64,000 bases of DNA from Escherichia coli (GTDB lineage Bacteria > Pseudomonadota > Gammaproteobacteria > Enterobacterales > Enterobacteriaceae): the NCBI RefSeq assembly GCF_001677475.2, contig NZ_CP015229.1; one strand, written 5' to 3'. Under the pieces are notes generated by a model. That model was not told the origin of the DNA, made no database searches, and saw only the letters and a program-made list of their open reading frames with translations. Made by a program: the position numbers and the translations under genes. This document shows positions 2,047-59,730 of the stretch, one piece after another. How positions within the stretch are numbered: position 1 is the stretch's first letter; each line of letters starts with the position of its first letter.

Positions 2047-2481
2047 TTGCATCCCTTTCATTTAATGAGTTATGTCTTCTCAAATTTCGCGATGCAATAA
2101 ATGGGCATATATTAGGTAGCATGGCCGATTTAATTATAATTTTGCGACTGAGTTCAAATTATTGCCCCTCAATCTGTGCCGCTTTCATTATTTCAACATT
2201 GCCGACCAAAAGAGAGCTAACCAGATAAAAACGATTAAATACGAGAGTGCGACATGCCAGAATGATTAATGAAATATCAATATGAGAAAATTACAGATAA
2301 TTCCATTGTCAGGTTCTCTTCTCATTTTCGTGGTTTAACCACGATTATGTGATTGCCTCCGCAATTCCTGTCTCTAACTCCCCTTCCTCGCAAAAACTGG
2401 CACTCCACGAGCATGTGTTTAGACAGTTTCATTAACGTAAACGGTTGCTTTTTACTCTGGCGAGCGAAAGGAGAAACACTG

Positions 2482-3930
2482 ATGAGCGCCATAGATTCCC
2501 AACTTCCCTCATCTTCAGGGCAAGATCGCCCAACTGATGAGGTTGACCGCATATTATCACCAGGAAAGCTGATCATACTCGGTCTGCAACACGTCCTTGT
2601 CATGTACGCAGGTGCAGTCGCTGTTCCTCTTATGATTGGTGACCGACTGGGCCTCTCAAAAGAAGCTATTGCGATGCTCATTAGCTCGGATCTCTTTTGC
2701 TGCGGGATCGTCACATTATTGCAATGTATCGGTATCGGCCGCTTTATGGGGATCCGCCTGCCGGTGATTATGTCGGTGACCTTCGCCGCTGTAACACCAA
2801 TGATAGCCATTGGGATGAACCCGGATATCGGCCTGCTGGGGATATTCGGTGCCACTATCGCCGCGGGTTTTATCACCACATTATTAGCGCCACTTATCGG
2901 TCGCTTGATGCCTTTATTCCCGCCACTGGTTACCGGTGTGGTTATTACTTCTATCGGACTTAGCATCATTCAGGTGGGTATTGACTGGGCCGCAGGAGGT
3001 AAAGGGAATCCGCAATATGGTAATCCTGTTTATTTAGGTATCTCCTTTGCTGTCTTAATTTTTATCTTGCTCATTACTCGCTATGCGAAAGGATTTATGT
3101 CCAACGTCGCCGTATTACTGGGGATTGTATTTGGCTTTTTACTTTCGTGGATGATGAATGAAGTCAATTTATCCGGGCTACATGATGCTTCATGGTTTGC
3201 GATTGTCACGCCGATGTCATTTGGTATGCCGATTTTCGATCCCGTTTCCATTCTGACCATGACTGCCGTGTTAATCATCGTGTTTATCGAGTCGATGGGG
3301 ATGTTCCTGGCACTGGGTGAAATAGTCGGTCGTAAACTCTCTTCACACGATATTATTCGCGGGTTGCGTGTCGATGGCGTAGGGACAATGATAGGCGGAA
3401 CGTTTAACAGCTTCCCCCACACGTCATTTTCTCAAAACGTTGGCCTGGTTAGCGTGACGCGCGTTCATAGCCGCTGGGTGTGTATTTCTTCGGGAATTAT
3501 ATTAATCCTGTTTGGCATGGTGCCAAAAATGGCGGTGCTGGTCGCCTCCATTCCGCAATTTGTGCTGGGCGGTGCTGGGCTGGTGATGTTCGGCATGGTA
3601 CTGGCGACAGGGATTCGAATTCTGTCGCGCTGTAACTACACCACCAACCGTTACAACCTCTATATTGTGGCGATCAGTCTCGGCGTTGGCATGACTCCGA
3701 CGCTCTCTCACGATTTCTTTTCTAAGTTACCGGCCGTACTGCAACCGTTGCTGCATAGCGGCATTATGCTCGCAACCCTTAGCGCCGTTGTGCTGAACGT
3801 CTTCTTTAATGGCTATCAGCATCATGCTGATCTGGTGAAGGAATCCGTCTCTGATAAAGATTTAAAAGTCAGGACAGTACGTATGTGGCTTCTGATGCGC
3901 AAGCTGAAGAAAAATGAGCATGGAGAATAA
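2482..3930 (+). CDS. uacT: NCS2-family uric acid/xanthine permease, 482 aa
   Basis: ORF 2353..3930; start chosen at ATG 2482 with AGGAG 9 nt upstream; polytopic membrane protein; position between ygfT and idi. Confidence 0.85.
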   Translation: MSAIDSQLPSSSGQDRPTDEVDRILSPGKLIILGLQHVLVMYAGAVAVPLMIGDRLGLSKEAIAMLISSDLFCCGIVTLLQCIGIGRFMGIRLPVIMSVTFAAVTPMIAIGMNPDIGLLGIFGATIAAGFITTLLAPLIGRLMPLFPPLVTGVVITSIGLSIIQVGIDWAAGGKGNPQYGNPVYLGISFAVLIFILLITRYAKGFMSNVAVLLGIVFGFLLSWMMNEVNLSGLHDASWFAIVTPMSFGMPIFDPVSILTMTAVLIIVFIESMGMFLALGEIVGRKLSSHDIIRGLRVDGVGTMIGGTFNSFPHTSFSQNVGLVSVTRVHSRWVCISSGIILILFGMVPKMAVLVASIPQFVLGGAGLVMFGMVLATGIRILSRCNYTTNRYNLYIVAISLGVGMTPTLSHDFFSKLPAVLQPLLHSGIMLATLSAVVLNVFFNGYQHHADLVKESVSDKDLKVRTVRMWLLMRKLKKNEHGE

Positions 3931-3931
3931 T

Positions 3932-4057
3932 ATGAATCTTTTAATGCGCGCTATATTCAGTCTGTTGTTGCTTTTTACTCTCTCTATTCCTGTCATTTCT
4001 GACTGTGTTGCAATGGCCATTGAAAGTCGCTTCAAATATATGATGCTGCTTTTTTAA
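3932..4057 (+). CDS. candidate small hydrophobic protein, 41 aa (MNLLMRAIFSLLLLFTLSIPVISDCVAMAIESRFKYMMLLF)
   Basis: ATG 2 nt after the uacT stop with GGAG 6 nt upstream; single predicted TM helix; too short for the ORF track; not validated. Confidence 0.25.
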   Translation: MNLLMRAIFSLLLLFTLSIPVISDCVAMAIESRFKYMMLLF

Positions 4058-4178
4058 ATGGTTTTACCTGTCGACATCCGCTCAAAACGGGCGGTTGTCG
4101 ATAAACGCTCACTTGGTTAATCATTTCACTCTTCAATTATCTATAATGATGAGTGATCAGAATTACATGTGAGAAATT

Positions 4179-4727
4179 ATGCAAACGGAACACGTCATTT
4201 TATTGAATGCACAGGGAGTTCCCACGGGTACGCTGGAAAAGTATGCCGCACACACGGCAGACACTCTCTTACATCTCGCGTTCTCCAGTTGGCTGTTTAA
4301 TGCCAAAGGACAATTATTAGTTACCCGCCGCGCTCTGAGCAAAAAAGCATGGCCTGGCGTGTGGACTAACTCGGTTTGTGGGCACCCACAACTGGGAGAA
4401 AGCAACGAAGACGCGGTGATCCGCCGTTGCCGTTATGAGCTTGGCGTGGAAATTACGCCTCCTGAATCTATCTATCCTGACTTTCGCTATCGCGCCACCG
4501 ATCCGAATGGCATTGTGGAAAATGAAGTGTGTCCGGTATTTGCCGCACGCACGACCAGTGCATTACAGATCAACGATGATGAAGTGATGGATTATCAATG
4601 GTGTGATTTAGCAGATGTATTACACGGTATTGATGCCACACCGTGGGCGTTCAGTCCGTGGATGGTGATGCAGGCAGCCAATAGTGAAGCAAGAAAATTG
4701 TTGTCTGCTTTCGCGCAGCACAATTAA
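4179..4727 (+). CDS. idi: isopentenyl-diphosphate delta-isomerase, 182 aa
   Basis: ORF 4179..4727; Nudix-type IPP isomerase sequence; convergent with lysS. Confidence 0.9.
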
Positions 4728-4752
4728 AAAACCCCGACATTTGCCGGGGTTG
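4726..4752. terminator. bidirectional intrinsic terminator between convergent idi and lysS
   Basis: Stem CCCCG/CGGGG (4732-4749) flanked by an A-run upstream, which is a T-run on the lysS strand. Confidence 0.6.
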
Positions 4753-4769
4753 TGAGCATAACGTAATGC

Positions 4770-6287
4770 TTATTTTACCGGACGCATCGCCGGGAACAGA
4801 ATAACGTCGCGGATGGTATGGCTGTTGGTGAACAGCATTACCATACGGTCGATACCAATTCCCAGACCTGCTGTCGGCGGTAAGCCGTGTTCCAGTGCGG
4901 TGACATAATCTTCGTCGTAGAACATCGCTTCGTCGTCACCTGCATCTTTCGCGGCAACCTGATCCAGGAAGCGCTGCGCCTGATCTTCCGCGTCATTCAG
5001 CTCGCTAAAGCCGTTACCGATTTCACGACCACCGATAAAGAACTCAAAGCGGTCTGTGATTTCCGGGTTAACGTCGTTACGACGCGCCAGCGGAGAAACT
5101 TCTGCCGGATATTCAGTAATGAAGGTCGGCTGGATCAGATGTGCTTCTGCCACTTCTTCGAAGATCTCGGTAACGATACGGCCCAGACCCCAGCTCTTCT
5201 CAACGTGGATGCCGATAGATTCAGCAATCGCTTTCGCAGAGTCGAAGTTGTCCAGATCTGCCATGTCGGTTTCCGGGCGATATTTCTTGATCGCTTCACG
5301 CATGGTCAGTTTTTCGAACGGTTTACCGAAGTCCAGCGTTACGTCGCCGTAGGTCACTTCCGTCTTACCGAGAATATCCTGTGCCAGAGTACGGAACAGC
5401 GATTCGGTCAGCTCGATCAGATCTTTGTAATCTGCGTAAGCCATATAGAGTTCCATCATGGTGAACTCTGGGTTATGACGTACGGAAATACCTTCGTTAC
5501 GGAAGTTACGGTTGATTTCGAATACACGCTCGAAGCCACCGACCACCAGACGCTTGAGGTACAGTTCCGGCGCGATACGCAGGTACATGTCGAGATCCAG
5601 CGCATTATGGTGGGTGATGAACGGACGCGCAGCCGCACCGCCTGGGATCACCTGCATCATCGGCGTTTCAACTTCCATAAAGCCGCGATTCACCATGAAC
5701 TGGCGAATGCCAGAGAGGATCTGCGAGCGCACTTTAAAGGTGTTGCGGGATTCATCGTTAGAGATGAGATCCAGATAACGCTGACGATAGCGCGCTTCCT
5801 GGTCCTGCAAGCCGTGGAATTTGTCCGGCAGCGGACGCAGTGCTTTGGTCAGCAGACGCAGCTCGGTGCAGTGGATAGACAGTTCGCCAGTTTTGGTTTT
5901 GAACAGTTTACCTTTCGCGCCGAGGATGTCGCCGAGGTCCCATTTTTTGAACTGCTCGTTGTAAACGCCTTCCGGCAGATCGTCACGGGCAACGTACAGC
6001 TGAATGCGGCCCCCCACGTCCTGCAGGGTAACGAAAGACGCTTTACCCATAATACGACGGGTCATCATGCGGCCGGCAACGGCGACTTCGATGTTCAGCG
6101 CTTCCAGTTCTTCGTTCTCTTTACCGTCGAATTCTGCGTGCAATTGGTCAGAGGTATGATCGCGACGGAAATCGTTCGGGAAGGCAATCCCCTGCTCGCG
6201 CAGGTTCGCCAGCTTCTCACGACGCGTTTTCAGTTCATTGTTAAGATCGACTACCGCGTCAGCGCCCTGTGCGTGTTGTTCAGACAT
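4770..6287 (-). CDS. lysS: lysyl-tRNA synthetase (constitutive), 505 aa
   Basis: ORF 4770..6287; class II aaRS; immediately downstream of prfB as in the prfB-lysS operon. Confidence 0.95.
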
Positions 6288-6296
6288 GTTGGTTCC

Positions 6297-7395
6297 TCAT
6301 AACCCTGCTTTCAAACTTGCTTCGATAAATTGATCCAGGCTGCCGTCCAGCACGGCCTGCGTGTTACGGGTTTCTACCCCGGTACGCAGATCTTTAATGC
6401 GGGAGTCATCAAGGACATAAGAACGAATCTGGCTGCCCCAGCCGATGTCGGATTTGTTATCTTCCATCGCCTGCTTCTCGGCATTTTTCTTCTGCATCTC
6501 CAGTTCATAAAGCTTCGCTTTCATCTGCTTCATGGCCTGGTCTTTGTTCTTGTGCTGGGAACGGTCGTTCTGGCACTGGGTCACGATCCCAGTTGGGATG
6601 TGAGTAATACGCACCGCAGATTCGGTACGGTTAACGTGCTGACCGCCCGCGCCGGACGCGCGATAAACGTCAATGCGCAGATCCGCCGGGTTGATTTCGA
6701 TATCAATATCATCATCAACTTCCGGGTAAACAAACGCAGAGCTGAACGACGTGTGGCGACGACCGCCGGAGTCAAACGGGCTCTTACGCACCAGGCGGTG
6801 AACGCCAGTTTCTGTACGCAGCCAGCCGTAAGCGTAATCGCCGGAGATTTTGATCGTCACGGATTTAATACCCGCCACTTCACCTTCCGACTCTTCGATG
6901 ATTTCAGTTTTGAAACCACGCGATTCTGCCCAGCGCAGATACATACGCTCAAGCATGCTCGCCCAGTCCTGTGCTTCCGTACCGCCAGACCCCGCCTGAA
7001 TATCGAGGTAGCAGTCGGCGCTGTCATATTCGCCAGAGAACATACGGCGGAACTCAAGCTGCGCCAGTTTTTCTTCCAGGGCGTCGAGTTCAGCAACGGC
7101 TTCGTTAAAGGTTTCTTCGTCGTCAGCTTCTACAGCCAGTTCCAGCAGACCAGAAACATCTTCCAGCCCCTGTTTCATTTGGTCGAGGGTGTCGACAACG
7201 GCTTCGAGGGAGGAACGCTCTTTACCCAGCGCCTGTGCGCGTTCGGGTTCGTTCCAGACATCCGGCTGTTCCAGCTCGGCGTTTACTTCTTCCAGACGCT
7301 CTTTCTTGGCGTCGTAGTCAAAGATACCCCCTAAGAACGTCGGAGCGTTCCGTGAGGTCCTGAATGCGATTATTTACCGGATTAATTTCAAACAT
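6297..7395 (-). CDS. prfB: peptide chain release factor 2, made by programmed +1 frameshift (365 aa)
   Basis: Frame 0 is ATG 7395..7393 through Leu25 (7324..7322) then in-frame TGA (7320..7318); the +1 frame continues 7319..6297 and matches ORF 6297..7178. Site reads CTT AGG GGG TAT CTT TGA C with the internal SD AGGGGG. Confidence 0.95.
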
Positions 7396-7485
7396 GGTCT
7401 GATTTCTTTTATTGAGCTAGTCAAAATGCGGTGATAAGAGCGGGATTGTACCCAATCCACGCTCTTTTTTATAGAGAAGATGACG

Positions 7486-9219
7486 CTAAATTGGCCAGAT
7501 ATTGTCGATGATAATTTGCAGGCTGCGGTTGCCGCGAAACTCGTTAATATCGAGCTTGTAAGCCAGTTGTACTTCGCGCACGCCGTTATCCGGCCAGAGG
7601 GCGGTATCGACATTAAAAGCAATACCATCCAGCAGCGGACCGCCGCCGACCGGTTCGACCATCACCTTCAAATGACGTTCGCCCACCAGCCGCTGTTGCA
7701 GCAGACGGAAATGACCGTCAAACAGCGGCTCCGGGAACATCTGCCCCCACGGGCCAGCATCGCGCAGCAGCTGAGCCACTTCCATGGTCATTTCGGCCGG
7801 GCTTAACGGACCGTCTGACACTACTTCGCCTTGCAATAGCGAAGGGTCCAGCCACTCAGAAACCAGTTCGCCAAACCGTTGTTGAAAGAGTTCGAATTTA
7901 TCCTCTTCCAGCGACAAACCCGCCGCCATCGCATGACCGCCAAACTTGAGCATCATGCCGGGGTAGAGTGTGTCTAATCGCTCCAGCGCATCACGCATAT
8001 GCAGCCCCTGAATCGAGCGACCGGAACCTTTCAGCGTACCGTCACCTGCTGGCGCAAAGGCGATAACCGGACGGTGAAAACGCTCTTTGATGCGCGAAGC
8101 CAGAATACCGACAACGCCCTGATGCCATTCGGGGTGATACATTGCCAGCCCGCCGGGTAGCGTGTCACGGCTGCGCTCCAGTTTCTCGCACAGGGTCAGG
8201 GCTTCAATCTGCATTCCTTGTTCGATCTCTTTTCGCGTCTGGTTTAGCGCATCGAGTTCATTTGCCAGCACGCGCGCTTCGCCGATGTTGTCGCAGAGCA
8301 ACAGCGCCACACCGACGGACATATCATCCAGTCGCCCGGCAGCATTGAGACGTGGCCCCAGCGCAAAACCTAAATCGCTGGCGGCGAGTTTTTGTGCATC
8401 ACGGTTTGCCACTTCAAGCAGAGCTTTAATCCCTGGACGGCACTTTCCGGCACGGATGCGACTCATCCCCTGCCAGGTCAGAATGCGATTATTAGCGTCC
8501 AGCGGCACGACGTCCGCTACTGTCCCCAGCGCGACCAGATCCAGCAGTTCTGCCAGGTTAGGAATTGCGATGCCATGCTCATCAAACCAGCCCTGATCAC
8601 GCAAAAAGGTGCGCAGCGCCAGCATCAGATAAAACGCCACACCCACGCCTGCCAGTGATTTCGACGGGAAATTACAGTCGCGCAAGTTAGGGTTAATGAT
8701 CGCTTCCGCTGCGGGTAATGTGTCGCCCGGCAAATGGTGATCGGTAACAATAACCGGAATGCCCAACGAGCGAGCGTGTTCAACCCCCGCATGGGAGGAA
8801 ATTCCGTTATCCACCGTGACAATTAACTGCGCGCCACGGGCATGGGCCTGATCGACCACTTCCGGGCTTAAGCCGTAACCGTCTTCGAAACGGTTTGGAA
8901 CCAGGTAGTCGATATTGCTGCAACCAAGCGAGCGCATCGCCAGCACGCTTAGAGCCGTACTGGTGGCACCGTCTGCGTCGAAATCACCGACCACAATAAT
9001 CCGCGTTCCTTCGCGAAAAGCGTTGTAAAGGATCTCAACGGCCTTTTCGACGCCGCTCAGTTGCTGCCAGGGCAGCATACCTTTAACACTGCGTTCCAGT
9101 TCTTGCGCACTGCGTACTCCCCGGCTGGCGTATAAACGGCGCAGCAAGGGAGGCAATTCAGCGGGCAAGTCTGCCGTTTCATCGACTTCACGGCGACGAA
9201 GTTGTATCTGTTGTTTCAC
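7486..9219 (-). CDS. recJ: single-strand-specific 5'-3' DNA exonuclease RecJ, 577 aa
   Basis: ORF 7486..9219; DHH phosphoesterase motifs (VVGDFDADG, DHH); xerD-dsbC-recJ order. Confidence 0.95.
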   Translation of the reverse strand: MKQQIQLRRREVDETADLPAELPPLLRRLYASRGVRSAQELERSVKGMLPWQQLSGVEKAVEILYNAFREGTRIIVVGDFDADGATSTALSVLAMRSLGCSNIDYLVPNRFEDGYGLSPEVVDQAHARGAQLIVTVDNGISSHAGVEHARSLGIPVIVTDHHLPGDTLPAAEAIINPNLRDCNFPSKSLAGVGVAFYLMLALRTFLRDQGWFDEHGIAIPNLAELLDLVALGTVADVVPLDANNRILTWQGMSRIRAGKCRPGIKALLEVANRDAQKLAASDLGFALGPRLNAAGRLDDMSVGVALLLCDNIGEARVLANELDALNQTRKEIEQGMQIEALTLCEKLERSRDTLPGGLAMYHPEWHQGVVGILASRIKERFHRPVIAFAPAGDGTLKGSGRSIQGLHMRDALERLDTLYPGMMLKFGGHAMAAGLSLEEDKFELFQQRFGELVSEWLDPSLLQGEVVSDGPLSPAEMTMEVAQLLRDAGPWGQMFPEPLFDGHFRLLQQRLVGERHLKVMVEPVGGGPLLDGIAFNVDTALWPDNGVREVQLAYKLDINEFRGNRSLQIIIDNIWPI

Positions 9220-13406: not shown

Positions 13407-13413
13407 ATCTCTG

Positions 13414-13448
13414 TGTCGCATCAGGCATTTATCGCCTGATGCGACACG
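13414..13448. terminator. long perfect hairpin between convergent ygfZ and yqfA
   Basis: GTGTCGCATCAGGC / GCCTGATGCGACAC, 14-bp perfect stem with a 7-nt loop; arms contain the REP-like GCCTGATGCG motif. Confidence 0.6.
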
Positions 13449-34104: not shown

Positions 34105-35092
34105 TGAAGCCACGCTGGCAGAAAGTATTCGCCGCTTACGTCAGGGTGAGCGTGCCACGCTCGCCCAGGCCATGACGTTGGTGGAAAGCCGTCACCCGCG
34201 TCATCAGGCGCTAAGTACGCAGCTGCTTGATGCCATTATGCCGTTCTGTGGTAACGCCCTGCGACTGGGCGTTACCGGCACACCCGGCGCGGGGAAAAGT
34301 ACCTTTCTTGAAGCCTTTGGCATGTTGTTGATTCGTGATGGATTAAAGGTTGCGGTTATTGCGGTCGATCCCAGCAGCCCGGTCACTGGCGGTAGCATCC
34401 TCGGGGATAAAACCCGCATGAATGACCTTGCGCGTGCCGAGGCGGCGTTTATTCGCCCGGTACCCTCCTCCGGCCATCTGGGCGGTGCCAGTCAGCGAGC
34501 GCGGGAATTAATGCTGTTATGCGAAGCGGCGGGTTATGACGTAGTGATTGTCGAAACGGTTGGCGTCGGGCAGTCAGAAACGGAAGTCGCCCGCATGGTG
34601 GACTGTTTTATCTCGTTGCAAATTGCCGGTGGCGGCGATGATCTGCAGGGCATTAAAAAGGGGCTGATGGAAGTGGCAGATCTGATCGTTATCAACAAAG
34701 ACGATGGCGATAACCATACCAATGTCGCCATTGCCCGGCATATGTACGAGAGTGCCCTGCATATTCTGCGACGTAAATACGACGAATGGCAGCCACGGGT
34801 TCTGACTTGTAGCGCACTGGAAAAACGTGGAATCGATGAGATCTGGCACGCCATCATCGACTTCAAAACCGCGCTAACTGCCAGTGGTCGATTACAACAA
34901 GTGCGGCAACAACAATCGGTGGAATGGCTGCGTAAGCAGACCGAAGAAGAAGTACTGAATCGCCTGTTCGCGAATGAAGATTTCGATCGCTATTACCGCC
35001 AGACGCTTTTAGCGGTCAAAAACAATACGCTCTCACCGCGCACCGGCCTGCGGCAGCTCAGTGAATTTATCCAGACGCAATATTTTGATTAA
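34097..35092 (+). CDS. argK: G3E-family GTPase ArgK/MeaB-like, 331 aa
   Basis: ORF 34097..35092; P-loop GTPGAGKST; 8-nt overlap with scpA. Confidence 0.9.
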
Positions 35093-38283: not shown

Positions 38284-38421
38284 ACCCCCTCCCCCGCATC
38301 CTTGTCCGCTTAACCGTTTCAGTCAGCCTATCCTTGATGAAACCGCGAGCAAAGATAGGTGATTACGTCATGGTTTTACAGAAAATTACAGAAAAAGGAG
38401 GCAATATCGGGTAAAGGCATT

Positions 38422-38443
38422 AGCCCGACGAATACGTCGGGCT
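38422..38443 (-). other. 9-bp-stem hairpin just downstream of yggE (possible terminator or 3' stabiliser)
   Basis: AGCCCGACG-AATA-CGTCGGGCT; no clean T-run follows on the minus strand. Confidence 0.35.
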
Positions 38444-38450
38444 ACAAATA

Positions 38451-43781: not shown

Positions 43782-44801
43782 TTACCTGAAAGCAACAGTA
43801 GCCATAGCTAACGTCGTGTCGAGCATTCGGTTAGCAAAGCCCCATTCGTTATCGCACCAGACCAACGTTTTGATCAGGTGTGCACCACTGACCCGGGTTT
43901 GGGTGCCATCGACAATGGCACTGTGCGGATCGTGGTTAAAATCTACAGAGACCAACGGCAATTCCGTATAGTCAACTATACCATGAAATGCACCTTGTGC
44001 TGCTTTTTGCAGCAACAGGTTGACTTCATTGGCTTTTACAGGTTTCTTCACCGTCACGCTTAAATCGATTGCCGTCACATTTATGGTTGGCACACGTACC
44101 GCAATCGCCTCAAAGCGATCGTTAAATTGCGGAAAAAATCGTGTGATACCGGCGGCCAGTTTAGTATCGACCGGAATGATCGACTGGCTGGCTGCCCGGG
44201 TGCGACGCAGGTCAGGATGGTATGCATCAATAACCTGTTGATCGTGCATGGCGGAGTGAATTGTGGTCACAGTGCCGGACTCAATACCGTACGCATCATC
44301 TAACAATTTGATGACGGGAATTATGCAATTCGTGGTACAGGAAGCGTTAGAAACGATGCGGTGTTCCGCACGAAGTTGATCCTGATTGACGCCGTAAACA
44401 ACGGTCGCGTCGAGATCGTTACTGCCAGGATGTGAAAAGAGCACTTTTTTAGCCCCGGCGGCAATGTGCGCTTCGCCATGCTCGCGGGAGCCATATACGC
44501 CGGTGCAGTCGAGGACTACATCAACGCCAAGTTCACGCCAGGGGAGCGATTGCAGTGAACGTTCATGCAATACGCGGATGGCGTCATCACCAACAAAAAG
44601 TTGATCGCGTTCCTGTCGTACTTCCCATGCAAAACGGCCATGGCTGGTGTCATATTTCAACAAATGCGCCATGCCCGCAGCATCCGCCAGTTCGTTGATT
44701 GCCACCACGGTAATTTCCGCCCGACGTCCGGATTCATACAAAGCACGAACCACATTACGCCCGATGCGACCGAAGCCATTTATCGCTACGCGTACGGTCA
44801 T
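43782..44801 (-). CDS. epd: D-erythrose-4-phosphate dehydrogenase, 339 aa
   Basis: ORF 43782..44885; start at [15 protein letters not shown] (ATG 44801..44799); GAPDH-family Rossmann motif. Confidence 0.9.
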
Positions 44802-45028
44802 AGATCTCCTGCAAGGTTTTCCCTGAGCAAATTTGCCAGACAGAGTAATCCAGCAAATCGTCCGGGGAAACCTTACCTGTCGCAAACTGCGACTGATTGG
44901 TTAATTGTCGAACATTTAATCGACTGAAACGCTTCAGCTAGGATAAGCGAAACGTGGAATAAAAGGAATGATTGTCCAGTCAAAGAAGACAATTATCTGA
45001 CTTACGTCACGTTTTCAGCCCCGCCCCT

Positions 45029-45044
45029 GTGGAATTTATTCCAC
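45029..45044. promoter_or_regulatory. candidate operator: inverted repeat GTGGAAT-TT-ATTCCAC, with an extra GTGGAAT half-site at 44954..44960
   Basis: Perfect 7-2-7 inverted repeat in the divergent epd / PPC-ECF operon spacer; no binding factor identified. Confidence 0.3.
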
Positions 45045-45172
45045 TTTGCAGAATCACGAATAAGCGTAGCAAAATCTTTTCGTTGTGCCGTCACAAACCC
45101 TGACTTATATCAGAATATGACTGATGCAGCGTCGATATTATCCGCAATACGTCCGAGTTTCGGAGTACTCCA

Positions 45173-45604
45173 ATGATGACATTGCCCTACCCATATTCTT
45201 CCTCCGCACGCTTTTACTCGCTGCGCCTGCTCCCCGGGCAGGAAGTTCTCTCCCAATTGCGCGCCTTCACGCAGCAACAACAACTCCACGCCGCGTGGAT
45301 TGCAGGTTGTACCGGCAGTCTGACTGACGTCGCCTTACGCTATGCCGGACAAGAAAACACGGCCCTACTAAGCGGTAAGTTCGAAGTCATCGCATTGAAC
45401 GGCACGCTGGAACAGAGTGGTGAACATCTTCATCTCTGCGTTTCCGATCCACACGGCACGATGCTTGGCGGTCATATGATGCCCGGCTGTACCGTGCGGA
45501 CCACGCTTGAACTGGTGATCGGCTGCCTTGAGGAACTGGCGTTTAGCCGCCAGTCTTGCGCGCTTTCTGGTTACGACGAGTTGCATATTTCCCCCGTTAA
45601 ATAA
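45173..45604 (+). CDS. PPC/DUF296-like domain protein, 143 aa (first gene of the island operon)
   Basis: ORF 45173..45604; GGAG 9 nt upstream; domain assigned from memory of the family (AAWIxGCxGSL, HLHLCVSDPHG, GGH..PGCTV). Confidence 0.7.
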   Translation: MMTLPYPYSSSARFYSLRLLPGQEVLSQLRAFTQQQQLHAAWIAGCTGSLTDVALRYAGQENTALLSGKFEVIALNGTLEQSGEHLHLCVSDPHGTMLGGHMMPGCTVRTTLELVIGCLEELAFSRQSCALSGYDELHISPVK

Positions 45605-45626
45605 CTACTTTCAGAGAGGTTTTCTT

Positions 45627-46205
45627 ATGGCGCGTCGCCACTTTTCCAGTCAGGCGTTGGTGTTGATCGTTATATCTATCGCCATCAATATGATCGGCGG
45701 GCAACTGGCCAGCATGGTCAAATTACCTATATTTCTCGACTCCATCGGCACACTTATTAGCGCGGTACTGCTTGGTCCGGTGATCGGGATGCTGACCGGC
45801 TTACTGACCAATTTACTCTGGGGATTGCTAACCGACCCGATCGCCGCCGCATTTGCGCCCGTCGCGATGGTCATCGGCCTGGTCGCCGGTTGGCTGGCGC
45901 GAGCGGGTTGGTTCCGCACCCTGCCAAAAGTTGTTGTCAGCGGCGTGATTATTACGCTTGTGGTAACGGTCGTCGCTGTACCGCTGCGTACTGCGCTGTT
46001 CGGCGGTGTCACCGGTAGCGGAGCCGATTTGTTCGTTGCCTGGATGCACTCAATGGGGCAAAACCTGGTGGAGTCGGTGGCGATTACGGTGATAGGCGCG
46101 AACCTGGTCGATAAAGTTCTCACAGCGGTGATTGTCTGGCTTTTACTGCGTCAGCTGCCGATTCGCACCACGCGCCATTTTCCGGCAATGGCAGCCGTGC
46201 GCTAA
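45627..46205 (+). CDS. ECF-transporter substrate-specific (S) component-like membrane protein, 192 aa
   Basis: 3' part of ORF 45528..46205; start at MARRHFSSQ (ATG 45627) with GAGAGG upstream; about 6 hydrophobic helices. Confidence 0.65.
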   Translation: MARRHFSSQALVLIVISIAINMIGGQLASMVKLPIFLDSIGTLISAVLLGPVIGMLTGLLTNLLWGLLTDPIAAAFAPVAMVIGLVAGWLARAGWFRTLPKVVVSGVIITLVVTVVAVPLRTALFGGVTGSGADLFVAWMHSMGQNLVESVAITVIGANLVDKVLTAVIVWLLLRQLPIRTTRHFPAMAAVR

Positions 46206-46913
46206 ATGCATCCGTTTACCTCATTAACGCTGTGGGCGCTGGCAGCCTGCACCACGCTAATCCTGCCCGCGCAGACCATTTTGCCGGTCTATAGCGCGGC
46301 GACCTTTCTCTGCCTTATTGCGTTAAAGTCCACGCGGCGGCGAGCAAAATATGTCGTCTGGCTGATGTTCTCGCTGGGGGCTGGACTGTGGCTGGTACAC
46401 GGTGGCTGGCTGACAGAATGGCTAAGCGGCACGCCACGCTCGCCAGAACGGTGGGCGCATGCTATTACGCTCTGGTTGCGGATTCTGGCGATTGTTTCAA
46501 CCTCGCAGTTGTGGATGCAATTCGTCCCCGTGCAACGTTTTATCCGCGCTTTGTTTGCTTCTCGCCTGCCGCCAGGCGTCGCTTATCTGTTTGCCGGGCC
46601 GTTATTGGTCGTTGAGCAGTTAAAACGGCAATTAGCGATTATTCATGAAGCGCAGCGTGCCCGCGGCGTGCCTCTGGATGAGGGCTGGTATCAACGTTTA
46701 CATGCGATGCCCGCGTTAATTATTCCGCTAACACACAATGCGCTAAACGATCTTGCTGTCCGTGGTGCGGCGCTGGATATGCGGGCATTTCGGATCCACA
46801 GCCGACGAACAACGTTGTGGGCACCAGCCGATAGCCCCCTACAACGCGTAGCGCGTTACACCATGATCTTGCTGATGCTGGCAGAATTCGGAGCGTGGAT
46901 ATGGTTACGTTAG
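46206..46913 (+). CDS. ECF-transporter transmembrane (T) component, CbiQ/EcfT family, 235 aa
   Basis: ORF 46206..46913; start abuts the previous stop (TAAATG); C-terminal coupling-helix motifs QRARG and AVRGAA. Confidence 0.75.
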   Translation: MHPFTSLTLWALAACTTLILPAQTILPVYSAATFLCLIALKSTRRRAKYVVWLMFSLGAGLWLVHGGWLTEWLSGTPRSPERWAHAITLWLRILAIVSTSQLWMQFVPVQRFIRALFASRLPPGVAYLFAGPLLVVEQLKRQLAIIHEAQRARGVPLDEGWYQRLHAMPALIIPLTHNALNDLAVRGAALDMRAFRIHSRRTTLWAPADSPLQRVARYTMILLMLAEFGAWIWLR

Positions 46914-47578
46914 AACAGTTTCGCTATTGCCCGACAAACTCAACGCATCCTCCGTTCTGTTATGACTTTCACTATGTCAAACCGGGGATAGTCGCCATCT
47001 TTGGTGACAACGGCAGTGGCAAAAGTACGCTGGCGCAACTGATGGCGGGCTGGTATCCAGACTTTCTACCAGGAGAGATAACCGGCACGGGGACACTTCT
47101 CGGTACGCCCATTGGGCATCTCCCGCTTAATGAACAATCCGCCACCATCCAGCTCGTCCAGCAATCGCCCTATTTGCAGCTCTCCGGCTGTACCTTTAGC
47201 GTGGAAGAAGAAGTTGCCTTTGGGCCAGAAAATCTGTGTCTTGCTGAAAAAGAGATTATGGCGAGGATTGATGCCGCCCTGACTCTGAGCGAGTGCCAGC
47301 CGTTGCGCCATCGACACCCGGCAACACTCTCCGGTGGAGAGACACAGCGCGTGGTCATCGCCTGCGCTATCGCGATGCAGCCAAAACTATTAATTCTTGA
47401 TGAAGCCTTTAGCCGCCTGACGCCGCAGGCCAGCGAAATGCTGTTGCAGCGCTTACAACACTGGGCGTTTGAACGTGGTTCGCTGATTATTCTTTTTGAA
47501 CGTCATCGCACACCTTTCCTGAACTACTGCCAGCAAGCGTGGCAACTGCAAAACGGAGCGCTCCAGCCACTATGTTAA
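46895..47578 (+). CDS. ABC ATPase (EcfA-like), 227 aa
   Basis: ORF 46895..47578; Walker A GDNGSGKST, signature LSGGETQR, Walker B LLILDEA; overlaps the T gene by 19 nt. Confidence 0.85.
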   Translation: MDMVTLEQFRYCPTNSTHPPFCYDFHYVKPGIVAIFGDNGSGKSTLAQLMAGWYPDFLPGEITGTGTLLGTPIGHLPLNEQSATIQLVQQSPYLQLSGCTFSVEEEVAFGPENLCLAEKEIMARIDAALTLSECQPLRHRHPATLSGGETQRVVIACAIAMQPKLLILDEAFSRLTPQASEMLLQRLQHWAFERGSLIILFERHRTPFLNYCQQAWQLQNGALQPLC

Positions 47579-48249
47579 CGTTAAATCAGGTAACTTATCG
47601 CTGGCCTGGCGCGGCAACGGATTGTCTTTGCGACATTTCTCTGCAACTCAAACAAGGCGAATGGCTGGCGCTGACCGGCGACAATGGCGCAGGGAAATCG
47701 ACGCTGTTACGAGTAATGGCAGGTCTTCTTACGCCCACAGCCGGTACAGTTATGCTGCAACAACAGACGATGAAAAACCTGAAAAACCGCCAGCGCGCGG
47801 CAAAGATTGGCGTACTGTTTCAGGAAGCGGAAAACCAGCTTTTTCACAGCACCGTCGCTGACGAGATCGCATTTGGTTTGAAACTGCAAAAATGCCCGGC
47901 GGATGAAATCACTCAACGTACCCATGCTGCCCTGCAATGCTGTCAGTTAGCAGACACTGCCAGCGCGCACCCGTTGGATCTGCATAGTGCGCAGCGACGG
48001 ATGGTCGCCGTCGCCTGCCTGGAAGCACTCTCTCCGCCACTATTGCTGCTGGACGAGCCGAGTCGGGATTTTGACGAAAATTGGTTGAGCGTGTTTGAAA
48101 GCTGGCTGGAGAAGTGCCGCCAGCGAGGCTCGAGCGTCGTAGCAATCAGTCATGACGCCGCATTTACCCGGCGTCATTTCTCTCGTGTGGTGCGACTGGA
48201 AGATGGTGTAATCAGGAACGTTAATCCACCAGACGATATTCACCCGTAG
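47572..48249 (+). CDS. ABC ATPase (EcfA'-like) with a degenerate signature motif, 225 aa
   Basis: 3' part of ORF 47539..48249; start at MLTLNQVTY (ATG 47572, ATGTTAA overlap with the upstream stop); Walker A GDNGAGKST, Walker B LLLLDEP, H-loop ISHD; signature position reads LHSAQR. Confidence 0.8.
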   Translation: MLTLNQVTYRWPGAATDCLCDISLQLKQGEWLALTGDNGAGKSTLLRVMAGLLTPTAGTVMLQQQTMKNLKNRQRAAKIGVLFQEAENQLFHSTVADEIAFGLKLQKCPADEITQRTHAALQCCQLADTASAHPLDLHSAQRRMVAVACLEALSPPLLLLDEPSRDFDENWLSVFESWLEKCRQRGSSVVAISHDAAFTRRHFSRVVRLEDGVIRNVNPPDDIHP

Positions 48250-48934
48250 CGGTCATCATTAAAGTCAAATTTGCAGGCAGACTCTCTTCCAGCACCCGGC
48301 GAACATTCGGCCCGTCGGTACGGTCATAAAAAGCTTCTGCGTCTGCCAGTGATAACCCTCCCGCCAGCTTGCGCCCCACCAGTCGTTCCCGCAACGCAGT
48401 AGCTGGCGCATTGATAAAGATCGAGAAATCACAAAATTGCGCAAGCTGGCACCACTTCTCGTCGTCCAGCAACAACCAGTTTCCTTCGACGATGACGAGT
48501 GGTGCGGTAACGTGCAACGCATCTTCAACAGGATCATGCTTTTGTCGATCATACTGCGGCCACGCACAATCCCCTTCCACTACCTGGCGCAGGTTTTCCG
48601 CCAGTTTCGCTACATCGAATGTCTCTGGTGCGCCTTTGAAGGGGCGCAATTGATGCGCATCCAGCCAGCTATTGTAATGGTGAAAACCATCCATCGGGAG
48701 TGTCTGAATAGCGGGTAGTTCCGGGTCTTGTTGCGCGAGATATTCCCAGAAGGTGGTTAGGGTAGATTTACCCGTCCCCGGCGGAGCGCAAAGAAAAACC
48801 ACCGTACGCCGCTGCGGATTTACCGTCTGTAAGGCCGCCAGCATACGCAGTAGCGTTTTATGAACATTCTCAATTTCATCATCAGAGTACTGCGCCTGTA
48901 CCTTTAGTCCATTCACCGTCAGTTCGATTTTCAC
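48221..48934 (-). CDS. yggC: P-loop nucleoside/pantothenate kinase-like protein YggC, 237 aa
   Basis: ORF 48221..48934; P-loop GTGKST; 3' end overlaps the convergent EcfA' gene by 29 nt. Confidence 0.85.
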   Translation of the reverse strand: MKIELTVNGLKVQAQYSDDEIENVHKTLLRMLAALQTVNPQRRTVVFLCAPPGTGKSTLTTFWEYLAQQDPELPAIQTLPMDGFHHYNSWLDAHQLRPFKGAPETFDVAKLAENLRQVVEGDCAWPQYDRQKHDPVEDALHVTAPLVIVEGNWLLLDDEKWCQLAQFCDFSIFINAPATALRERLVGRKLAGGLSLADAEAFYDRTDGPNVRRVLEESLPANLTLMMTATGEYRLVD

Positions 48935-49440
48935 GGCGTTAATTCCTTTAAGGTTGTCGTTACTGCCAGCGTCAGCGCCGTTTTGACCATCCCGCTAAAA
49001 CGCGCCTCTGACCAGACGGCGAAATCGGCGAACTTCATCGCTTTCAACGCGTCATAGAGCGTCGCATTGCGGATTATGCTATTGACGTTGCTGATAAAAT
49101 CCCAGGTCATGTCATCGGCAAATCCGGGCATTTCATCCTGTTCGTTCAGGTAATGCCAGAACTGGGAAAAATGCGTGATATCGGCGTACAGCCATTTATC
49201 CATTTTCCCCAGCGCATAAATCAAACGCAGTGCAACATCAATATCGTCAAGCGGGCCGCTTTGGGCGAGTAACGGCTTCACTGCATATTCGACGATCTCT
49301 TCATCATTATCGACAAACAGCGACGGCAGAAACTGGCGTATCCCCTGGAGCAAAATAGAATGCGCAGTTTTCATAAATGAAAATAAATTGTCCTGTGCCT
49401 CCAGTTGCTCAAGCACATCATCTTCTGTCAGCGTCGCCAT
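48931..49440 (-). CDS. yggD: MtlR-like putative transcriptional regulator YggD, 169 aa
   Basis: ORF 48931..49440; 4-nt overlap with yggC. Confidence 0.85.
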   Translation of the reverse strand: MATLTEDDVLEQLEAQDNLFSFMKTAHSILLQGIRQFLPSLFVDNDEEIVEYAVKPLLAQSGPLDDIDVALRLIYALGKMDKWLYADITHFSQFWHYLNEQDEMPGFADDMTWDFISNVNSIIRNATLYDALKAMKFADFAVWSEARFSGMVKTALTLAVTTTLKELTP

Positions 49441-49461
49441 TGGTCTTCCGATAGATCACCA

Positions 49462-50427
49462 TCAATGCAGGGAGTCTATTATATTACACGTTTGGTCCGC
49501 GCCGCCGATCAGTAATGTCTGCGTCCGCACCCCATTCGCCGTCTGTTGGATTCCGTTCACCAACTCGCCGCCCGTCACGCCCGTAGCGCTAAAGAGGATA
49601 TCGTTCCCCCTCACCAGTTCATCGAGCGAGTACACACGGTTAACGTCAACGCCCATTTCCTTGCAACGCTTGCGCTCCTGCTCTGCAATCTGCCGATTTT
49701 CCGTGTAATCCCCTTTAGCCTGACAAAAGTCAATCAGCTCGGCCTGCATATCCCCGCCTAATGCTTTAACGGCACAGGCAGAAATCACGCCTTCTGGCGC
49801 ACCGCCGATGGTGTACATCACATCGTAAGGATTATCCTGCCAGCAGGTCAGCACGCTGGCGGCGACATCGCCATCCGGCAGGGCAAAAACCTTCACGCCC
49901 AGCTGTGTTGCTTCCTCAATTGCGGCACTCAGGCGCGGTTTATCCAGCGTAACCATACGCAGCTTGTCCAGCGGTTTGCCTAACGCTTTCGCCACGTTGC
50001 GCAAGTTGTCCGCCAGAGGCATGGACAGATCAATCGCGCCCGCCGCCAGCCGATTAACAACCAGTTTTTTCATATACATATCGGGCGCGTGTAACAGGCT
50101 ATCTCGAGGGGCGAAAGCCATGACCGCCAGCGCATTGCTCTGCCCCATCGCCACCATCCGCGTGCCTTCAATGGGATCGACCGCGATATCGACTTCTGGC
50201 CCATCGCCTTTGCCCACCTCTTCGCCAATCCACAGCATCGGCGCATGGTCAATTTCTCCCTCGCCGATAACCACTCGCCCACGAAAAGCGACGTCGTTCA
50301 ACGCCTGGCGCATCGCGGTGACCGCCAGGCCGTCGATTTTGTTTTTATCGCCACATCCGGTTTGCGGCCAGGCAGCCAACGCTGCCTGTTCCGTAACGCG
50401 AAATAATGGCCACGCCAGGGACATCAT
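49462..50427 (-). CDS. yggF: class II (GlpX-type) fructose-1,6-bisphosphatase YggF, 321 aa
   Basis: ORF 49462..50427. Confidence 0.85.
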   Translation of the reverse strand: MMSLAWPLFRVTEQAALAAWPQTGCGDKNKIDGLAVTAMRQALNDVAFRGRVVIGEGEIDHAPMLWIGEEVGKGDGPEVDIAVDPIEGTRMVAMGQSNALAVMAFAPRDSLLHAPDMYMKKLVVNRLAAGAIDLSMPLADNLRNVAKALGKPLDKLRMVTLDKPRLSAAIEEATQLGVKVFALPDGDVAASVLTCWQDNPYDVMYTIGGAPEGVISACAVKALGGDMQAELIDFCQAKGDYTENRQIAEQERKRCKEMGVDVNRVYSLDELVRGNDILFSATGVTGGELVNGIQQTANGVRTQTLLIGGADQTCNIIDSLH

Positions 50428-57933: not shown

Positions 57934-57940
57934 TTTCATA

Positions 57941-57972
57941 TTTCTCCGACAGGAATGTCGGAGAAATTTTCA
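57941..57972 (+). terminator. loiP intrinsic terminator
   Basis: TTTCTCCGACA-GGAAT-GTCGGAGAAA followed by TTTTCATTC. Confidence 0.75.
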
Positions 57973-59664: not shown

Positions 59665-59701
59665 GTTTTAAATGATAAGTCCCTTGTGCCAGACAAGGGA
59701 C
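59665..59701 (-). terminator. hairpin downstream of speB
   Basis: Perfect 8-bp stem GTCCCTTG/CAAGGGAC followed on the minus strand by a T-rich tract. Confidence 0.5.
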
Positions 59702-59730
59702 TGTGCAAAAAATTCGACCAGGCAGGTTAC

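Follow-up and report, generated by a model that had tools for sequence, protein, structure and literature searches.

The window, a stretch of 64,000 nucleotides of the Escherichia coli contig NZ_CP015229.1, carries an operon of five plus-strand genes in the order PPC-ecfS-ecfT-ecfA1-ecfA2, in which neighbouring genes abut or overlap by 7–13 nt. A gene for a PPC/DUF296 protein (45173–45604), an unusual partner for an ECF transporter, comes first and is followed by those for the ECF S component (45627–46205), the ECF T component (46206–46913) and two ABC ATPases, ecfA1 (46901–47578) and ecfA2 (47572–48249). The final gene, ecfA2, was delimited from its open reading frame (ORF) and translation, with PGAP coordinates transferred from the loci of E. 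coli HH97 and O157:H7 FRIK944, and was assigned using Pfam and NCBIfam: EcfA2 scores 96.8 bits against ABC_tran and also matches NCBIfam ECF ATPase models. EcfA1 matches ABC_tran as well, and the best NCBIfam models for the two ATPases are ECF_ATPase_1 and ECF_ATPase_2, with scores below the equivalog cut-offs. The S component matches PF12822 (35.2 bits, cut-off 30.7) and is most similar to the uncharacterised CD3073 family (NF045596), at 138 bits and thus below the cut-off of 180; the T component scores 21.1 bits against PF02361 (CbiQ), under the cut-off of 25, and its orthologue is named an ECF T component by PGAP. Both ATPases are short (225 aa) and do without the C-terminal helical domain of solved EcfA/A' proteins, and the ABC signature motif of EcfA2 is degenerate (about residues 140–150), reading LHSAQ instead of LSGGQ. 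An Rfam scan of positions 44000–50000 at E-values up to 1 returned no riboswitch, small RNA or other family, and therefore no riboswitch or small RNA explains the locus or hints at a substrate. Our search for literature on the expression or function of the operon retrieved only a brief mention in the E. coli W genome paper, in which a 'cbiQ-O2' system between epd and yggC had already been noted (PMC3032704). In E. coli OkiPb01695 (2207–5614 of its own locus), ecfT has an internal stop, an IS91-family element truncates ecfA2 beyond the first 528 nt, and the segment from yggC through part of cmtA is deleted.

On the minus strand, yggC (48221–48934) encodes a 237-aa protein of a nucleoside/nucleotide kinase family, as identified from its ORF, its translation and a full-length match to NF006742 (519 bits). 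It is the final gene of the minus-strand run cmtA-yggP-glpX(yggF)-fumE(yggD)-yggC. In E. coli HH97 (6963–7455 of its own locus), the glpX-like yggF consists of two pseudogene fragments and about 650 bp are missing relative to the window (about 49613–50259).

The two genes meet in a convergent coding overlap of 29 nt (48221–48249), which can be read directly from the sequence and in which the 3' end of ecfA2 lies opposite that of yggC. According to a mechanically generated ORF list, the plus-strand stop of ecfA2 is TAG at 48247–48249, and the minus-strand stop of yggC is TAA at 48223–48221, which reads tta on the plus strand (48221–48223). Across the overlap, the EcfA2 residues (V)NPPDDIHP and stop are encoded opposite the YggC residues (A)TGEYRLVD and stop. 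PGAP annotates the identical pair with the identical 29-nt overlap in E. coli HH97 and O157:H7 FRIK944, in agreement with the first-pass annotation of the window, which had placed the shared ORF ends at exactly these positions. A search with a 301-nt query spanning the junction, at thresholds of at least 95% identity and at least 80% query coverage, retrieved 3318 of 5426 complete E. coli genomes; in every full-coverage match listed the query was aligned over its full length, and both genes were annotated under the match. Records labelled as plasmids account for one match of this query and for two matches of a query with the 5-kb region. Both partners are real protein-coding genes, as shown by their family-model matches and by orthologues in many genera, and the overlap is reproducible in the 3318 E. 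coli genomes and in 17 loci of other genomes from at least five genera. A frameshift or false stop, which had been named at the outset as something that might abolish the overlap, was checked for and excluded; since matching ORF ends recur in other genera and in thousands of complete genomes sequenced independently, an artefact of annotation or assembly has a negligible probability.

Conservation and drift of the overlap across genera

To place the junction in a wider context, 57 loci with a yggC orthologue were fetched, one genome per species, and their neighbouring genes were mapped, in addition to three E. coli loci fetched earlier. This gave a comparison set of 17 loci from 16 other genomes in which the operon lies between epd and yggC. 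Besides E. coli itself, the operon is carried by E. albertii, E. whittamii, six genomes of the Citrobacter freundii group, C. koseri, Silvania confinis, two Superficieibacter, the Enterobacteriaceae metagenome-assembled genome (MAG) UBA5654 and Phytobacter massiliensis; one more locus comes from a MAG labelled Citrobacter, the sequence of which is nearly identical to the Escherichia type. Wherever the operon adjoins yggC, ecfA2 and yggC overlap (17 of 17 loci, at least five genera). The lengths of the orthologous overlaps are 29, 44, 26, 68, 41, 92 and 11 nt, and every one of them equals 2 modulo 3, which implies that the two gene cores keep a fixed spacing and phase and that only the stop codons move. 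In the longest case, that of UBA5654 (about 7700–7790 of its own locus), YggC has lost its usual stop and extends by ~16 extra residues into antisense ecfA2, and thus the stops of both partners drift.

The length of the overlap in the window is not above chance expectation. Nine stops occur in the ecfA2 frame across the 714 nt of antisense yggC, an average spacing of 79 nt, so that it is unsurprising for the first stop to be reached after 29 nt. Less trivial is the presence of an overlap in all genera with the gene pair. The nucleotide-binding core of EcfA2 ends at about 48213–48216 (..RLEDGVI-R), leaving about 5–8 nt to the yggC stop, and the final ~10 codons encode a variable tail. Accordingly, in alignments of EcfA2 the core is conserved up to ..ISHDAAFT.RHFSRVVRL.. 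and is followed by a tail that differs between genera, and PDB alignments with ABCB-type nucleotide-binding domains end at EcfA2 residues 212–215 of 225, although some EcfA1 chains formally extend to residue 225. Since the overlap corresponds to EcfA2 residues 216–225, it falls within the variable tail beyond the conserved core.

On the other strand, the C-terminus of YggC is of about equal length and ends in a GxYR-type motif (..L.M...G.YR..) in taxa with and without the operon. A comparison of operon-bearing and operon-less taxa had been proposed as a check for remodelling of this C-terminus; as the end position is homologous and the motif is alike in both, the C-terminus was not remodelled, and it is the K-12 allele that stands out (see below). 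On these alignments, YggC is the constrained partner of the overlap. The YggC C-terminal sequences of Citrobacter braakii and Raoultella (two loci) are nearly identical (..LEMLESGEYRIA) despite the generic distance, which suggests exchange of the yggC locus between genera.

In Buttiauxella, Klebsiella, Enterobacter and Lelliottia, epd mostly adjoins yggC without the operon. Because it is the more basal genera that mostly show this arrangement, an older insertion in an ancestor of the Escherichia/Citrobacter group is likely. Buttiauxella sp. B2 has a second configuration, in which a PPC-ecfS-ecfT-ecfA operon (3–1908 of its own locus) lies on the other side of the cmt-ygg cluster, divergent from cmtB, and epd abuts yggC. 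Linkage to the cmt-ygg cluster in two configurations hints at a functional connection. Homologues of yggC in Alkalibacterium lie near housekeeping-type ecfA-ecfA'-ecfT genes, which is probably coincidental.

Haplotype boundaries and the history of the operon

The operon is carried by 61% of complete E. coli genomes and is missing from K-12 and the remaining 39%. The overlap had been taken as the right-hand junction of a presumed insertion, and we therefore aligned the boundaries in the window, O157, K-12 and one further locus. On the left, the K-12 blastn segment ends at 45022, and pairwise alignment shows residual similarity to about 45045, which places the limit of homology at 45023–45050, in the epd-PPC intergenic region. 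On the right, the K-12 blastn alignment starts only from 48290, and a sliding comparison gives 47–70% identity from 48221 to about 48460 and 95–100% beyond. This jump, supported by the alignment, puts the breakpoint between the operon haplotype and the K-12-type haplotype at 48455–48470, about 235 nt inside yggC and not at the overlap. The segment is thus bounded by an intergenic region on one side and by the interior of yggC on the other, with no tRNA.

In K-12, epd is followed by 284 bp and then yggC; no remnant of ecfA2 was found in this spacer, and the 132 bases of K-12 that remain unmatched are the diverged yggC 3' end plus spacer. Operon-bearing and operon-less strains have homologous yggC alleles, which do not differ in length. 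The 5' 470 nt of these alleles are 91–97% identical regardless of operon status, whereas the 3' 240 nt show about 60% identity between haplotypes (48221–48470 in the window; 2587–2830 in the K-12 locus). The same holds at the protein level, with 95% identity between K-12 and the window over the N-terminal 160 aa and 63% over the C-terminal 77 aa. The window-type C-terminus is 71–79% identical to that of Citrobacter, whereas the C-terminal 77 aa of K-12 YggC are at most 65% identical to those of every other sampled genus and have no close relative among the 57 sampled species. Operon-less alleles differ among themselves by 5–13%. The K-12-type segment is hence the outlier, and has the appearance of a replacement that came from a distant, unsampled lineage.

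Two cryptic-clade genomes retain traces of the operon. In Escherichia sp. E1V33, the equivalent of window positions 44802–45254 is joined to that of 48011–48335 at a microhomology, GGAAG..TCTCTCC (45241–45253 and 48021–48035). The scar, which lies between yggC (7001–7711) and epd (8354–) in the coordinates of its own locus, forms an intact in-frame PPC'(23 aa)-'EcfA2(76 aa) ORF, which joins the N-terminus of the PPC protein to the C-terminus of EcfA2 and still ends at the ecfA2 stop overlapping yggC. Escherichia sp. MOD1-EC7003 has a separate deletion scar with its left edge at 45196 and a decayed remnant, and both scars still hold the ecfA2 3' end and the overlap.

These observations bear on the proposal that the overlap is the scar of a recently inserted foreign island, which became fused into yggC and rewrote its C-terminus. 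The absence of the operon from K-12 and from more than a third of E. coli genomes would fit such an event, as would the strong difference in the yggC 3' end between strains with and without it. However, the operon-type C-terminus is the one that resembles Citrobacter, the breakpoint lies well inside yggC, and the operon and overlap occupy the matching site in E. albertii, E. whittamii, Citrobacter, Silvania, Superficieibacter and Phytobacter. Among the sister lineages that ought to lack a recent island, E. albertii and E. whittamii are occupied and the two cryptic-clade genomes bear deletion scars. Base composition gives no sign of an island either, with a GC content of 53–59% in the operon against 49–57% in the flanks, and no integrase or transposase is found among the five operon genes (PPC, S, T, A and A'). 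A recent insertion is therefore highly improbable, and the first-pass reading of the junction has to be revised on this point. From the distribution and the scars we infer instead that the operon and its overlapping junction were ancestral in Escherichia and were lost several times.

Transcription through the junction and an embedded hairpin

The first-pass annotation had also stated that no room is left for a terminator between the two genes and that transcription must run antisense in both directions. The first statement holds, the intergenic space between ecfA2 and yggC being zero, and from it the second can be deduced: lacking an intergenic space for a terminator, each mRNA necessarily runs at least 29 nt into the opposite gene. 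For either stop, the roughly 280 nt that follow contain no canonical terminator according to a consensus scan and a hairpin-plus-T scan. On the plus strand, positions 48250–49500 yielded no credible terminator in the hairpin-plus-T scan, in agreement with the consensus scan. The latter reported one weak minus-strand site (47803–47787), with counts below shuffle expectation. As both stops have to be encoded, it follows from the sequence that the ecfA2 and yggC mRNAs must share a complementary stretch of at least 29 nt. Beyond the ecfA2 stop, the plus-strand RNA is rich in C and poor in G, with a C/G ratio of 1.3–1.65 for about 350 nt. Untranslated RNA of this composition is a substrate for Rho, and the RNA 3' of the ecfA2 stop would be untranslated and hence a predicted Rho substrate.

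Such an arrangement could be regulatory, in the manner of an excludon or of mscL/arfA, with convergent transcription or duplexes between 3' ends making the ECF and cmt-ygg operons mutually antagonistic. Besides the lack of a canonical terminator near either stop, the conservation of the arrangement across genera would be in keeping with this, as would the linkage of the ECF operon to cmt-ygg in Buttiauxella sp. B2 even on its other side. There is a precedent in E. coli, the antisense regulation of mscL by the tail-to-tail gene arfA (PMC10070815), and synthetic antisense transcription is reported to tune expression (PMC4731013). Against a regulatory role, the overlap is conserved in phase but in neither length nor sequence, and yggC is kept without the operon in 39% of E. 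coli genomes and in many genera. In Buttiauxella, moreover, the operon is divergent from the cluster, so that convergence is not required; we regard a regulatory role as unlikely.

A GC-rich hairpin (48152–48177) is embedded in ecfA2 and begins, on the minus strand, 44 nt past the yggC stop, with a perfect 9-bp stem (ATGACGCCG, an 8-nt loop and CGGCGTCAT) and a predicted stability of about −15 kcal/mol, which coincides with the codons for HDAAFTRRH. The 64-kb window contains 12 distinct hairpins this strong, against about 1.9 in shuffles (~six-fold). The other eleven, perfect hairpins of 9–14 bp (13413–13447, 57940–57967, 34250–34276, 38421–38444, 59678–59702 and others), are presumably terminators or REP-like elements. 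RNAalifold recovers the hairpin at 48152–48177 independently. Pairing is kept in 90.3% of alignment cells when the sequences are read as minus-strand RNA (16 sequences) and in 79.4% when read as plus-strand RNA (14 sequences), where the minus-strand set comprises the 14 plus-strand sequences and the two deletion-scar genomes. All one-sided stem transitions give G.U on the minus strand and an A.C mismatch on the plus strand, and two pairs are compensatory. On the minus strand the stem is not directly followed by a U-tract, the sequence continuing GACUGAUUGC; on the plus strand it continues UUCUCUCGUG, a borderline U-tract that the consensus scan did not report. The hairpin was also considered as an intragenic terminator on the plus strand; this idea was set aside, because termination there would cut ecfA2 short, 70 nt ahead of its stop, and because the pairing pattern agrees better with the minus strand.

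The minus-strand hairpin is a candidate for a functional 3'-end element of the yggC operon, either a terminator or a block to exonucleases, which would be compatible with an overlap that is itself neutral. The enrichment of such perfect hairpins over shuffles speaks for this, as does the minus-strand bias of the pairing, in which G.U pairs replace the plus-strand mismatches and two pairs co-vary. The hairpin is also perfectly intact in the decayed MOD1-EC7003 scar, where it is no longer under protein-coding constraint. However, the minus-strand U-tract is missing and the hairpin is degraded in Superficieibacter and Phytobacter. Folds of the whole region (131 nt) are not significantly more stable than shuffles on either strand (z = −0.01 and −1.08), and the shuffle control used in counting pairs ignores the relatedness of the sequences. 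Furthermore, the arms encode conserved H-loop residues (SHD..RRH), so that much of the conservation is explained by codon constraint. We hold a role as a 3'-end element to be a tentative possibility, somewhat doubtful on this balance; if it applies, the two transcripts would overlap by no more than about 70 nt, with minimal interference.

Origin of the overlap and comparison with known systems

Taken together, the ecfA2/yggC junction is probably a passive, neutral tail-to-tail overlap, which would be old and ancestral in Escherichia, with operon-less strains arising by deletion or replacement and with transcripts that are expected to overlap. The conserved cores of the two genes lie almost end to end: since the EcfA2 core ends 5–8 nt before the yggC stop, an earlier stop is not likely and there is no space for a terminator. 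Having no stop of its own before yggC, ecfA2 is read antisense through the last yggC codons to the first chance stop. Point mutations would then shift this stop, giving overlaps of 11 to 92 nt between genera at constant phase, and the overlapping EcfA2 residues would form a tail free of constraint, with a sequence imposed by the better conserved C-terminus of YggC. In the cryptic clades the operon has been lost by deletion, as the two scars show, and in K-12-type strains the segment from about 45023–45050 to about 48460, comprising the operon and the yggC 3' end, would have been replaced by a short, very divergent, operon-less allele. Each transcript would run some way into the opposite gene with little regulatory consequence, and would be ended probably by Rho acting on the untranslated C-rich antisense RNA and/or be trimmed to the embedded hairpin.

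Some of the observations sit less easily with neutrality. That an overlap has persisted in several genera could be a sign of functional coupling rather than inertia, as could the second configuration in Buttiauxella sp. B2, and the conserved hairpin may indicate that some non-coding selection acts near the overlap. In its strongest form, the conserved abutment would itself be functional, with the minus-strand hairpin in the H-loop codons serving as the 3'-end element of cmt-ygg and the transcript overlap negatively coupling the orphan ECF importer to the adjacent sugar-phosphate/kinase operon; we give this combination only a slim chance. On the neutral account, the junction is one more tail-to-tail overlap explained by stop-codon drift; the idea of an island junction is corrected by the position of the breakpoint. 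The epd-yggC region represents a sharp dimorphism of E. coli, between a probably ancestral five-gene ECF haplotype and a short replacement allele of apparently distant origin. The common statement that 'E. coli lacks ECF transporters' is also affected, as 61% of complete genomes carry one.

As in dedicated (group I-like) ECF operons such as CbiMNQO and BioMNY, the S, T and ABC ATPase genes of the present operon are found together. It differs from these in having two 225-aa ATPases that lack the helical domain found at the C-terminus of the solved EcfA/A' proteins (280 aa), a PPC/DUF296 protein as its first gene, an S component that is CD3073-like yet below the family cut-off, and no riboswitch in 44000–50000. 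With bidirectional intrinsic terminators the locus shares a GC-rich hairpin near the meeting point of convergent transcription units; here, however, the hairpin is inside coding sequence, with no U-tract on the minus strand and a weak one on the plus strand (UUUCUCUCG).

Excludons, long antisense transcripts opposing neighbouring operons, have been described in Listeria. By analogy, read-through from one operon here could be antisense to the other, but the definition of an excludon requires that long antisense RNAs have been mapped and that they affect two gene sets in opposite ways, whereas here a complementarity of at least 29 nt can be deduced. Closer in layout is the convergent mscL/arfA pair of E. 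coli, whose mRNAs are complementary between the 3' region of one and the 3' coding sequence of the other (PMC10070815). Its antisense regulation has been shown experimentally, whereas that of ecfA2/yggC would be a prediction, and unlike mscL and arfA, ecfA2 and yggC are both the last genes of long operons.

The closest counterparts are the convergent overlapping gene pairs of bacterial genomes, a well-known and frequent class of which 75 have been counted in the E. coli reference genome (PMC4161906). The ecfA2/yggC pair is not among these 75, because it is absent from K-12. In such pairs, as here, two genuine genes, one on each strand, overlap at their 3' ends, and movement of stop codons creates or alters the overlap. 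Nothing essential sets ecfA2/yggC apart from them; its overlap is retained in several genera, with a length that drifts between 11 and 92 nt.
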